Source: Phycisphaerae bacterium
GTDB lineage: Bacteria > Planctomycetota > Phycisphaerae > UBA1845
Direction of reading: 5' to 3'
NCBI GenBank assembly: GCA_963666835.2
Contig: CAXXGO010000001.1
Coordinates: 1,888,001 to 1,952,000, forward strand
DNA: 64,000 bases
Positions 14,185-17,027 of this stretch are shown here, piece by piece. Numbering within the stretch: the first letter of the stretch is position 1; each line of letters opens with the position of its first letter. The notes beneath the pieces are model-generated. The model was not told where the DNA came from, searched no databases, and was given only the letters and a program-made list of their open reading frames with translations. Made by a program: the position numbers and the translations under genes.

Positions 14185-15111
14185 ATGAACATACTCATAA
14201 CCGGTTCGAGCGGGCAGATCGGTACTAACACGGCTTTGGCATTGCTGGAGCGCGGCGACACGGTTGTCGGAGTGGATTGCCGAGAGAACACCTGGGTCGA
14301 CCGGTTCGAGACGATCAAGCTCAATCTGATCGACGGGGCGCCCGCTGGACTACCCGACGGAAGCCGGTTCGACGCGGTTCTTCATCTGGCGGCGAATGCG
14401 AAGGTCTTCGAATTGGTCGAGCATCCCGAGCGGGCCATGGACAACATCAAGAGCCTCTTCGGTGTGCTAGAGTACTGCCGGCTCAACAAGCTGCCGATCA
14501 TCTTCGCCAGCTCGCGCGAAGTGTACGGCGATATTCACCGCCACGTGACCGACGAAGCATCTGCGGATTTCGTCGTGGCTGAGAGCCCGTATAGTGCCAG
14601 CAAGATCGCCGGGGAGGCGCTCATTTACTCGTATGCTCAATGCTATGGGCTGCCGTTCTTGGTCTTTCGATTCAGCAACGTGTACGGCCGGTACGACAAC
14701 GACATCGAGCGGCTCGAGCGCGTGATCCCGCTGTTCATCGATCGTATCGCCCGCGAGCGGCCCATAGTAGTGTACGGGAAGGAGAAGGTGCTGGATTTCA
14801 CGTACGTGGACGATGCGGTGGCAGGGGTCCTGGCCGGAATAGACGCCCTCGTCTCCGGGCGAGTCGTGGGTCAGACGGTCAACTTAGCGTGCGGGCAGGG
14901 CAGCACCCTGGTTGATGTGGTCAACATAGTTTCATTGGCTTTGCAGAAGAAGCCGCGGGTGACCTACGAACCGTCGCGGGCGGGTGAAGTCACTCGGTAC
15001 GTCGCGGACATTACCAAGGCTCGTGAGCTGCTGGCGTACGAACCGCAAGTCCCATTCAGCACCGGTCTCATTCTAGCCGTGGAGTGGGGGGCGAAGTCAA
15101 ATCGCAAGTGA
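14185..15111 (+). CDS. NAD-dependent epimerase/dehydratase
   Basis: TGSSGQIG, HLAA, ASSREVYG, YSASK, DFTYVDD. Confidence 0.9.
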   Translation: MNILITGSSGQIGTNTALALLERGDTVVGVDCRENTWVDRFETIKLNLIDGAPAGLPDGSRFDAVLHLAANAKVFELVEHPERAMDNIKSLFGVLEYCRLNKLPIIFASSREVYGDIHRHVTDEASADFVVAESPYSASKIAGEALIYSYAQCYGLPFLVFRFSNVYGRYDNDIERLERVIPLFIDRIARERPIVVYGKEKVLDFTYVDDAVAGVLAGIDALVSGRVVGQTVNLACGQGSTLVDVVNIVSLALQKKPRVTYEPSRAGEVTRYVADITKARELLAYEPQVPFSTGLILAVEWGAKSNRK

Positions 15112-15151
15112 ACCCCCCCCCCTTTCGGCGCAGCGATGTGCTGTGGAAAGG

Positions 15152-15913
15152 TCACTCGTTCCGCGATTCGCGTACTCGGATCAGTACGTCATCGGGGTCG
15201 ATCCGATCCTGAATGCGGCTGGAGATGTACTTCCAGACGATCCTGCCTTGCCGGTCGATCAGCACGTGTGCGGGAATGGCGATGTCGCTGTCGTCCAGGG
15301 CGCCGCCTTTGTGTAACAGGCCGAACGCCCGGATGACTTCACGCTCGGTATCACAAATAACGGAGAAGTTCAGGTTGTTGCGCTCGACCATGCGGCGGGC
15401 GTCGGACGGGGCATCCGCGGCAATGGCCAACAACCTGCCACCCTGAGATCGCAGTTCCTCAGCTACGGCTCCGAGACCTCGGAGTTCAGCTACGCACCAG
15501 GGTCACCAATGCCCGCGATAGAATACCAGCAAGACCGGACCACGCGCATGCGCTTCTCGGAGCGAAATCGGAGTACCCGTATGATCCGCAACGGTGAAGT
15601 CAGGGGCAGTTTCCACCGTGACAGCAGCGGAAGGGGCCGGAAGGGACGCGCCGATATAGAACGCATATACGAAGGCGGCCAGCAGAGCCAAGTTAAACGC
15701 GCCGAGAATGCGAACCGCGGTTCGACGATCGCGCCACAACGCCGACAGAGTGAGTACTCCGCCGGCCGCCATTATACCTACGGCCACAGCGCCGCTTGAA
15801 CGCATCGCAGGGTTATCGATAAGCAGAGCGTATGCCAGGGGGCCGGCAAACATCAAACCCAGCCCGGCCACCACTGACCCCGTTGCGTGCACCTCGTCCG
15901 GTGGTTTGTCCAT
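15152..15913 (-). CDS. membrane-anchored AhpC/TSA peroxiredoxin-like selenoprotein (UxxC; Sec TGA at 15503-15505)
   Basis: ORFs 15503..15940 and 15152..15433 are in one frame and separated only by a TGA: APDFTV..GPVLLVFYRGHW-U-PWCVAELRGL..LAIAAD..FSVICD..PAHVLIDRQGRIVW. Three N-terminal TM helices; SECIS-like hairpin after the TGA. Start 15913 follows GGAGAG (15940 is an alternative). Confidence 0.88.
15460..15492 (-). promoter_or_regulatory. bacterial SECIS element candidate
   Basis: mRNA UGA-N10-UAGCU-gaa-CUCCGA-GGUC-UCGGAG-ccgu-AGCUG; the apical loop starts 25 nt after the UGA. Confidence 0.78.
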
Positions 15914-15949
15914 CGTGAAGCTCTCCAGTTCGAAGCCCATGCGCGACCG

Positions 15950-17027
15950 CTATGCTTCGGGGGCGACCGCGGGGCGTTGCCATTCCGTCGCCGACGCACA
16001 CTTGGCGAGTTGGCAGGCCAAGTGAATCGCTTCTTTCATGCTCCCGGCGTCCGCCGCGTCGGTTCCGGCAATGTCGAAGGCGGTGCCGTGATCGACGCTC
16101 GTACGAATGATGGGCAGACCCAGGGTGACGTTTACCGCAGTGTCAAACGCGAGCATTTTGACCGGGATCAAGGCCTGGTCCATGGTACATTGCCACGATG
16201 CCATCGAACCGAGAGCGCATCCGCGGTGTGAACAGAGTGTCCGCGGGGAACGGTCCGTCGACGTCTATGCCCGCGTTGCGGGCCATCTGCATGGCGGGTC
16301 GAATCACCCGTTCTTCTTCGTCACCGAATTGCTGATCCTCACCCGCGTGAGGGTTCAACGCCGCTACCGCTATGCGGGGATCGGTTATTCCAAACCACTT
16401 CGTTAAGGCAGTGTGGAGCAGGTCGATAGGCTGAAACACGAGCCCGATAGTGAACTTGTTGCGGAGTTCGAAAAGCCCCAAGTGAGTGCTGGCAAGGGCG
16501 ACTCGCAGCCCGCCTCCGACGAAGGCCATCGTTACCCGCTTAGCCTTGAAGGCGTCGGCAAGCTTGTCAGTATGTCCGGCAAACCGGCAGCCGGCGAGCT
16601 TCCAACTGACCTTCTGGATTGGGGCGGTAACTATGGCGTCGATCGCGCCGTCTCGGGCGGCTTCGATGGCGTCATCGAAGAACCGCAGGCTGGCGTGTCC
16701 TCCTTCTGCGGTAGGCCGGGCGACCACCCAGCTCCCCGCCTTGTATTCGTCGTAATTACGAACGACGACGCCGGAGTCGATCCGCATCGGTTCATCCGGG
16801 CGGATCGTGAACCAGAACGGCCGAATCGCTGCGGTGTCCGCCGCCGCCGTTAGCACGTCGTCGACACCGTAAATGACGAATCTGCCCAGCGCGCGGATGT
16901 CGGGATCGGCCAGGGCCTTGACAATCACCTCGGCCCCAATGCCGGCCGGGTCGCCCATTGTGATTCCGACGAGCGGCAGCCTGGCGTCGGGGAGTCTCTG
17001 GTTGTGCGTCATGAAGTCGGCCGTCAT
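15950..17027 (-). pseudogene. pdxA: 4-hydroxythreonine-4-phosphate dehydrogenase, +1 frameshift near 16180 (pseudogene or sequence error)
   Basis: ITMGDPAGIG, TAPI, GHT, LNPHAGE, PADT, AMYH. Removing one G from CATGGACCAG restores [32 protein letters not shown]. Confidence 0.85.

Follow-up and report, generated by a model that had tools for sequence, protein, structure and literature searches.

Peroxiredoxin-like (Prx-like) selenoproteins with a UxxC motif in place of TxxU have been described from the Sargasso Sea (PMC1088965), and the accessible sections of a catalogue of 119 selenoprotein families list, in Table 1, a Prx-like thiol:disulfide oxidoreductase (PF00578, UxxC or UxxU), a redoxin family protein (PF08534, UxxC) and a peroxiredoxin-like family protein (cd02970, UxxS) (PMC13188914). 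Split peroxiredoxin and thioredoxin selenoprotein candidates are also listed in a planctomycete, according to the available part of a further report (PMC4807772). In the accessible text of the catalogue article the strings ‘transmembrane’ and ‘Planctomyc’ are absent, and the available portion of the BSepDB main text makes no mention of Prx or Planctomycetes (PMC13326102); the 57,630 entries of that database may hold members of the family analysed here under a generic name. In the bacterial envelope, the consulted parts of the respective reports describe that ScsB of Caulobacter reduces TlpA and a Prx-like protein, giving a chain from ScsB through TlpA to PprX (PMC3322552), and that the membrane-bound ScsD is a disulfide reductase with ScsB as its partner (10.64898/2026.05.22.727170).

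Here we analyse a locus of a Phycisphaerae bacterium (GenBank assembly GCA_963666835.2, contig CAXXGO010000001.1) at positions 15152..15913, minus strand, of the window, by which we mean the whole 64,000-nt stretch of DNA that was analysed. Like the Prx-like UxxC selenoproteins, its product scores over the cut-offs of both PF00578 and PF08534 and has UxxC for TxxU, but it differs from them by an N-terminal three-helix domain without a Pfam or PDB match. With TlpA, ResA/CcmG and Salmonella ScsD it shares a membrane anchor, a thioredoxin-like domain that is predicted to face outward, a CxxC-type site, a proline at the cis-Pro column and a DsbD/ScsB-type protein in the host; it differs from them in having Sec for the first Cys, three helices and no scsB or ccm neighbours, and is closer to PrxQ than to ResA in both sequence and fold. 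The enzyme type is long known. This form is set apart by a three-helix anchor that is uncatalogued in the sources compared, a likely envelope location and a planctomycete range, the anchor and the lineage being what is new. A literature search, its scope lying outside most subscription papers, found no description of the three-helix-anchored form.

One conserved frame interrupted by a TGA

Translation with table 11 breaks the locus into two minus-strand ORFs, 15503..15940 (145 aa) and 15152..15433 (93 aa), which the original prediction had joined through a single in-frame TGA. We confirmed this frame and assigned it to the minus strand, which the original prediction had left unstated: with TGA read as U it stays open as far as the ordinary TGA stop at 15152-15154, its sole internal TGA being that at 15503-15505 (minus strand), in the context VFYRGHW-U-PWCVAEL. 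The read-through product from the ATG at 15913 has 253 aa, in agreement with full-length homologues, and the TGA would encode Sec137, the first position of the active-site motif U137-P-W-C140. This start is likelier than an alternative upstream ATG at 15940, because a Shine-Dalgarno-like GGAG (15923..15926, minus strand), putatively functional, lies 10-13 nt 5' of the ATG at 15913 and the ATG at 15940 has no such site. A plus-strand reading of 15152..15913 was ruled out, the frame being closed.

The TGA at 15503-15505 is not an assembly error, since contigs from four of four sequencing runs (two studies) span these positions and show no other letter, and hence neither TGC nor TGT; one of these contigs belongs to a strain and differs at 26 further places, and run X1 may be the source sample. 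In the host genome TGA is the commonest stop of ORFs longer than 500 aa (442 of 1064, shadow frames included), and this use as an ordinary stop excludes a code in which TGA means Trp.

The coding frame is conserved on both sides of the in-frame UGA, as expected of a selenoprotein, the two halves being conserved as one frame with 35-54% identity. Among 60 relatives (36 of the same family and 24 of the same order), 17 have full-length matches (8/36 and 9/24, respectively), with TGA at the Sec codon in 16 and TGC in one. When species genomes were scanned, 144 loci emerged, and the 80 best of them, which were analysed, gave 76 TGA and 4 TGC; the record titles of these 80 are mostly of Planctomycetota, with two Acidobacteriota and one Dehalococcoidia. 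Six of the 80 (L130, L131, L133, L134, L136 and L137), in which the whole anchor was not matched, are excluded from the family counts. Pooling gave 105 loci, which reduce to 89 distinct ones, with 83 TGA and 5 TGC plus L085, a TGA in the earlier set; the column thus holds 84 TGA, 5 TGC, no TAA and no TAG, bearing out the expected pairing of TGA with Cys codons in homologues. From these alignments, the conservation of TGA at this column is judged to be more than chance, and we consider the gene almost certainly a real selenoprotein gene.

The nearest relatives of the protein are Phycisphaerae records. A profile made from the anchor alone matched 18 of 301 genomes of the phylum, and when 13 of the 17 non-self matches were fetched, the four weakest being omitted, all 13 contained the whole gene. 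The dipeptide within UxxC varies across the family (PW, PF, LS, QM, MT). Quick trees placed three Cys rows in two positions; several independent Sec-to-Cys reversions were proposed and set aside, since the tree improved when these rows were kept in a single group, a grouping that the test did not reject (p-AU 0.75). Prx-like or TlpA-like UxxC genes without the three-helix anchor also occur in relatives (L047, L048, L049, L052, L053 and L055), L049 being a UxxU gene with two TGAs.

That gene-calling pipelines would split such a gene, as had been anticipated, is evident from public annotation. The anchor profile retrieved 239 protein clusters at 50% identity, and of the 151 public proteins examined (150 listed anchor matches and P0170) 130 end before the Sec, at F-Y/F-R-G-x-W, five have the motif with Cys and the other 16 are variant or fragmentary sequences. 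The query gene itself is affected, its 136-aa N-terminal half being deposited as such in the public collection, and one relative is annotated as ‘hypothetical protein’. Because most public records are truncated, word-indexed protein searches (18, 3 and 8 matches) returned almost no full-length relatives.

Decoding machinery and a hairpin within the coding sequence

The host genome (6.0 Mb, 92% complete) was searched for the genes needed to decode Sec, and all of them are present over their cut-offs, as the prediction of a Sec-decoding host had implied: selA (479 bits), selB, a tRNA-Sec (68.4 bits; gathering score 47) and two copies of selD, one of which has an in-frame TGA of its own (L011, C6:1524365-1525294). 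A default ARAGORN run found one tRNA with a TCA anticodon, and this is of the 96-nt Sec type. Across the family, selA was matched in 31 of 31 TGA-bearing genomes tested (over the cut-off in 30) and also in four of five Cys-type genomes. Since selA is common in the phylum anyway (over the cut-off in 225 of 301 genomes), this co-occurrence lends the selenoprotein reading modest support. Of the host's own class, the same phylum sample lists 19 genomes, the host included, and in only four of these does selA exceed the cut-off.

Further genes with in-frame TGAs were seen in the host. One encodes a TxxU-type peroxiredoxin (L142, C1:294536-294934), and three encode large proteins that start like a signal peptide and have a CEEFTxxx-U-xx-C motif in the N-terminal part: L170 (C1:1961800-1965756, about 10 kb past the right end of the window), L171 (C6:954358-955899) and L172 (C6:886598-889069). 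A near-identical hairpin lies 19 nt 3' of each of their TGAs. These three resemble the Omp28-related selenoprotein model NF045500, at 50-100 bits against a cut-off of 200, and of the three, one is fused to an FGE-sulfatase domain and one to a multiheme cytochrome c. A literature search for Omp28 together with selenoprotein found no paper.

Downstream of the TGA of the query we predict a bacterial SECIS (bSECIS) element, whose upper stem-loop (15469..15484, minus strand) has 6 bp and a 4-nt loop starting with GG and lies 24 nt after the TGA, inside the codons for E-L-R-G-L-G. A lower stem extends it to 15460-15492 (minus strand) in folding, bringing the energy from -7.5 kcal/mol for the upper stem to -13.5 kcal/mol (z -2.16). 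We presume the loop to be akin to that of the E. coli fdhF element. The hairpin agrees with the bSECIS consensus as given in section 5 of the catalogue article, namely a 4-16 bp stem, a loop of 3-9 nt with G in its first two places, a distance of 16-37 nt from the UGA and an energy of at most -7.5 kcal/mol (PMC13188914).

In the query alone the signal is weak, with z -0.31 over 76 nt, and folding of the whole region was rejected as proof of a SECIS element on this ground. A scan of the host genome with the same hairpin test was likewise discarded as a selenoproteome finder, too many chance matches being among the 2645 of 27687 open TGA sites that passed. Across the family the evidence is strong. 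With an energy cut of -5, looser than the -7.5 of the consensus, the test was passed by 66 of 68 Sec members and one of three Cys members, compared with 444 of 4420 control codons (10%). The choice among synonymous codons hardly varies from +7 to +11, Leu being encoded by CTC in 58/68 and 60/65 cases against a background of 30%, and a hairpin Gly codon is GGA in 45/51 against 14%. In 51 distinct sequences, 93.5% of cells pair and a C-G to U-A double change occurs in four, at one pair only, figures that are inflated by kinship and by the choice of these sequences for their shared register; the top stem pair is unpaired in 20 of the 51.

Three registers of the hairpin are seen, their loops lying near +21, +24 and +30 and the encoded residues being ELVGL or ELVEL, ELRGLG, and ELRGLVEV, respectively. 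It lies about 3 nt earlier than in most members in L067, L068, L076, L083, L088, L089, L104, L111 and L127 and 6 nt later in L079, L080, L084, L085, L100 and L125. In a quick tree built without the hairpin-coded residues, the +24 register has the broadest spread (52 of 71 rows), while each of the other two requires three to four changes, with weak support. As a separate observation, the host genome contains a dispersed GC-rich repeat of at least about 50 nt, with some two dozen copies on both strands in a pattern scan (for example at C1:334069, C6:72225 and C7:2181).

A predicted PrxQ-type fold with a thioredoxin-like motif

Residues 96-253 (15155..15628, minus strand) form a thioredoxin-fold domain of BCP/PrxQ type, scoring 93.5 bits against PF00578 (cut-off 26), and PF08534 is also over its cut-off. 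The model is matched best by AhpE (Z 23.3; 151 residues at an rmsd of 1.6), BcpB (21.7) and A. pernix BCP (21.5), with ResA scoring 18.3, and the best sequence match in the PDB is A. pernix BCP (2cx3, E 4e-29). The query stays under the cut-off of every NCBIfam model. Of these the best, the SelL-related redox protein NF040769 (E 5e-19), covers residues 102-200 only and gives 68.6 bits against a cut-off of 120, and all 19 aligned members match it; ResA (55.9/170), TlpA (22.7/230) and DsbE (17.2/123) are also under their cut-offs. Compared by description only, and from the available part of the source, PRX_like2 (cd02970), with CxxC and without the Prx triad (PMC3514251), fits the motif.

Aligned with BCPs, Sec137 falls in the Thr/Ser column of PxxxTxxC, and its partner Cys140 (15494..15496, minus strand; 72/72 sequences) in the peroxidatic Cys column. 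Arg133 (15515..15517, minus strand), also found in 72 of 72, replaces the Pro of the Prx motif, and Pro214 (15272..15274, minus strand; 70/72) replaces the catalytic Arg, which is present in none. The host's TlpA-like protein also has Pro at the Pro214 column. The domain therefore resembles BCP/PrxQ and AhpE, including the periplasmic PprX of Caulobacter, in its fold (Z 21-23), its closest solved sequence and the position of Cys140, but it has Arg, Sec and Pro where those proteins have the Prx Pro, Thr/Ser and Arg. Of the features of a true peroxiredoxin, the fold is found in the model, while the PxxxT/SxxC motif and the catalytic Arg are absent; the features of the Prx-like thiol:disulfide oxidoreductase selenoproteins, a PF00578 domain and UxxC rather than TxxU, are both present. 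The description of the protein as peroxiredoxin-like thus stood for the fold and gave way for the active site. Because the Prx Pro, Thr/Ser and Arg are replaced, the domain, as judged from alignment, combines a scaffold of PrxQ type with a site of thioredoxin type and is not a member of the peroxiredoxins. Given UxxC and the thioredoxin-type Pro, its predicted activity is most likely that of a disulfide reductase rather than of a classical peroxiredoxin.

A predicted three-helix anchor

Three transmembrane helices had been proposed ahead of the redox domain, and hydropathy recovers them in the query and in 17 of 17 full-length orthologues. The predicted TM1 (residues 14-32, 15818..15874) runs from in to out and is followed by loop 1 (residues 33-41, 15791..15817), which contains a short helix at 35-40 and, from alignment and model, would lie on the side of the redox domain. 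The predicted TM2 (residues 42-59, 15737..15790) leads to the basic loop 2, WRDRRTAVR (residues 60-68, 15710..15736), predicted to be cytoplasmic from its K+R count, and the predicted TM3 (residues 69-87, 15653..15709) again runs from in to out, all of these features being on the minus strand. An AlphaFold model of the whole protein (pLDDT 94.5, pTM 0.89) agrees, with helices at 8-30 (TM1), 42-61 and 65-88 followed by the thioredoxin fold, and the anchor modelled alone gives the same three helices (pLDDT 88.7). The whole-chain pTM of 0.89 suggests a fixed contact between anchor and redox domain. Loop 1 is conserved at D33, P35, R38, T/S40 and G41, with R at 84%, T at 83% and G at 77% in 130 rows.

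From the basic loop 2, an extracytoplasmic redox domain had been deduced, and the underlying charge pattern holds family-wide. In 19 aligned sequences the mean number of K+R is 2.32 before TM1, 1.16 in loop 1 (where it is partly offset by 0.84 D+E), 3.74 in loop 2 and 1.0 after TM3, and a further 130 homologue rows show the same pattern. Because of this positive-inside bias across the family, we predict with good confidence that the topology is N-in, C-out and that the redox domain faces the periplasmic side.

No Pfam family matches the anchor under E 0.006, and no family is found in more than two of 18 members; a Foldseek search against the PDB found no match at E <= 0.001, the best being a BAG three-helix bundle at E 2. 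In the ESM Atlas the anchor alone retrieved only hypothetical clusters of 124-143 aa at 0.77-0.80, which are a lead only, and a full Cys homologue retrieved AhpC/TSA clusters of about 260 aa at 0.96. A redox-active Cys was sought in the anchor and rejected, there being none in the query and zero to two, none of them invariant, in homologues; without a conserved Cys, the anchor is unlikely to carry electrons itself.

A second family of three-helix Prx-like proteins was encountered (L046:1483-2244, minus strand, and P0178-P0181), with a TGA at the same motif and with Cys relatives. Its anchor has basic residues after helix 1, which predicts the opposite, cytoplasm-facing orientation of the domain; homology between this anchor and that of the query was not accepted, with an HHalign probability of 12%.

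Genomic context and a possible electron donor

No conserved operon or neighbour was found, the largest neighbour cluster covering 5 of 74 loci plus the query locus. The gene lies downstream of ribE and pdxA in the same orientation, an arrangement that is absent at the loci of the closest orthologues. A promoter and terminator scan at the locus gave no promoter-like and one terminator-like site, the same as in shuffles. A hairpin at window positions 15105-15160 (z about -2.1 to -2.5) bridges the 40 bp that separate the gene from a convergent epimerase gene and may be a terminator, with no T-run by scan. The neighbouring pdxA (15950-17027, minus strand) appears as two ORFs owing to a shift of one base near 16180; since the contig of run X2 is without the extra base and those of X1 are interrupted at this point, this is probably an assembly indel or strain-specific.

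The host encodes a DsbD/ScsB-type protein, whose open frame spans about 790 aa and includes DsbD_N, DsbD_TM and Thioredoxin_7 domains. Its gene is on another contig and no neighbour of this kind recurs, so that nothing like an scs operon is found. DsbD_TM is present in 35 of 36 family genomes and in 10 of 14 controls; since it is near-universal, its presence does not tie this donor to the gene and is permissive only, the proposed link being made by analogy. Two DsbD/ScsB-type sequences, L138 (C6:420390-421010) and L173:491-2884, were seen to have a long N-terminal region with two Cys pairs, one a CxxxC and one more widely spaced, which suggests two alpha-like subdomains in these proteins.

Discussion

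The reading that we lean towards, with confidence a little better than even for the mechanism as a whole, is that of an outward-facing, disulfide-reducing UPWC site that is recharged through DsbD/ScsB. The in-frame TGA would be read as Sec, aided by the hairpin 24 nt 3' of it, and the protein would be held in the inner membrane by its three helices with the U-P-W-C site likely in the periplasm. By thioredoxin-family chemistry, Sec137 would be the nucleophile that attacks a disulfide or an oxidised thiol, Cys140 would resolve the mixed selenenylsulfide and Pro214 would take the role of the thioredoxin cis-proline. The putative substrates are envelope proteins, whose disulfides or otherwise oxidised thiols the enzyme would reduce, and we infer that the oxidised enzyme would be recharged from the cytoplasm via the DsbD/ScsB-type electron transporter of the host.

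The same gene with the same topology could instead encode a selenium-dependent envelope peroxidase, in which H2O2 or lipid hydroperoxides would react with Sec137 at the surface of the membrane and be reduced, Arg133 would do the work of the missing Prx Arg and Cys140 would resolve. Selenolates react fast with peroxides, the structural matches to AhpE, BcpB and BCP exceed that to ResA, the closest sequence in the PDB is a BCP, and Arg133 is invariant; all three non-Cys active-site residues of the peroxiredoxins are, however, replaced, and the host already has two ordinary BCPs and a TxxU peroxiredoxin. Caulobacter, in the accessible part of its study, offers examples on both sides, a periplasmic PrxQ being known there, while PrxL, which also lacks those residues and belongs to a different CDD family, has no detectable peroxidase activity (PMC3322552). 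We regard a peroxidase as possible, though unlikely. It is decidedly doubtful, from the model, that the three-helix domain is itself a working part, which would pack rigidly on the redox domain via D33-P35-R38-T/S40-G41 and hold the selenolate at the membrane surface for a lipid-phase or membrane-protein substrate.

A redox domain on the cytoplasmic side (N-out, C-in), recycled by cytoplasmic thioredoxin or thioredoxin reductase, seems very unlikely to us. It would agree with the conserved Arg in loop 1 and with the inward-facing domain predicted for the L046/P0178-P0181 three-helix family, but that anchor is not convincingly related to the present one, and the K+R means of loop 2 and the N-terminus (3.74 and 2.32, against 1.16 in loop 1 and 1.0 after TM3), with the 130 further rows in agreement, point the other way.

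Two VKOR-thioredoxin fusions in the host genome (L139 and L140) could in principle re-oxidise an outward-facing oxidase or isomerase of DsbA type, and the variable XX dipeptide gives no clear redox sign. The VKOR fusions carry thioredoxin-like domains of their own, however, and the scaffold is of the Prx/ResA/TlpA type, of which the characterised envelope members are mostly reductases; an oxidase is accordingly a highly improbable reading. Finally, a reading in which the TGA ends translation or is decoded as Trp or Cys, in a nonsense pseudogene, a pair of genes or another code, deserves next to no credence, for although gene callers treat it as a stop and TGA is the commonest stop of long host ORFs, this codon is TGC in five of the 89 loci and TAA or TAG in none, the two halves show conservation as a single frame, the hairpin is conserved, and the only TCA-anticodon tRNA found is of the Sec type, with ordinary TGA stops excluding TGA as Trp.

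For the reductase that we prefer, no new mechanism is revealed unless the anchor proves functional; were it a working part, the protein would be a bacterial envelope counterpart of the membrane-acting selenium peroxidases, hidden by mis-annotation in more than 200 clusters. The natural occurrence of Sec and Cys versions with the same anchor allows a direct comparison of Sec and Cys in a membrane redox enzyme, and the three hairpin positions along the same helix-coding stretch provide a natural test of how a SECIS element within a coding sequence constrains the protein. The finding reveals a sizeable, almost purely Sec-using family that is truncated in public gene calls, and it implies that uncultured Phycisphaerae and other Planctomycetota likely use selenium in the cell envelope.
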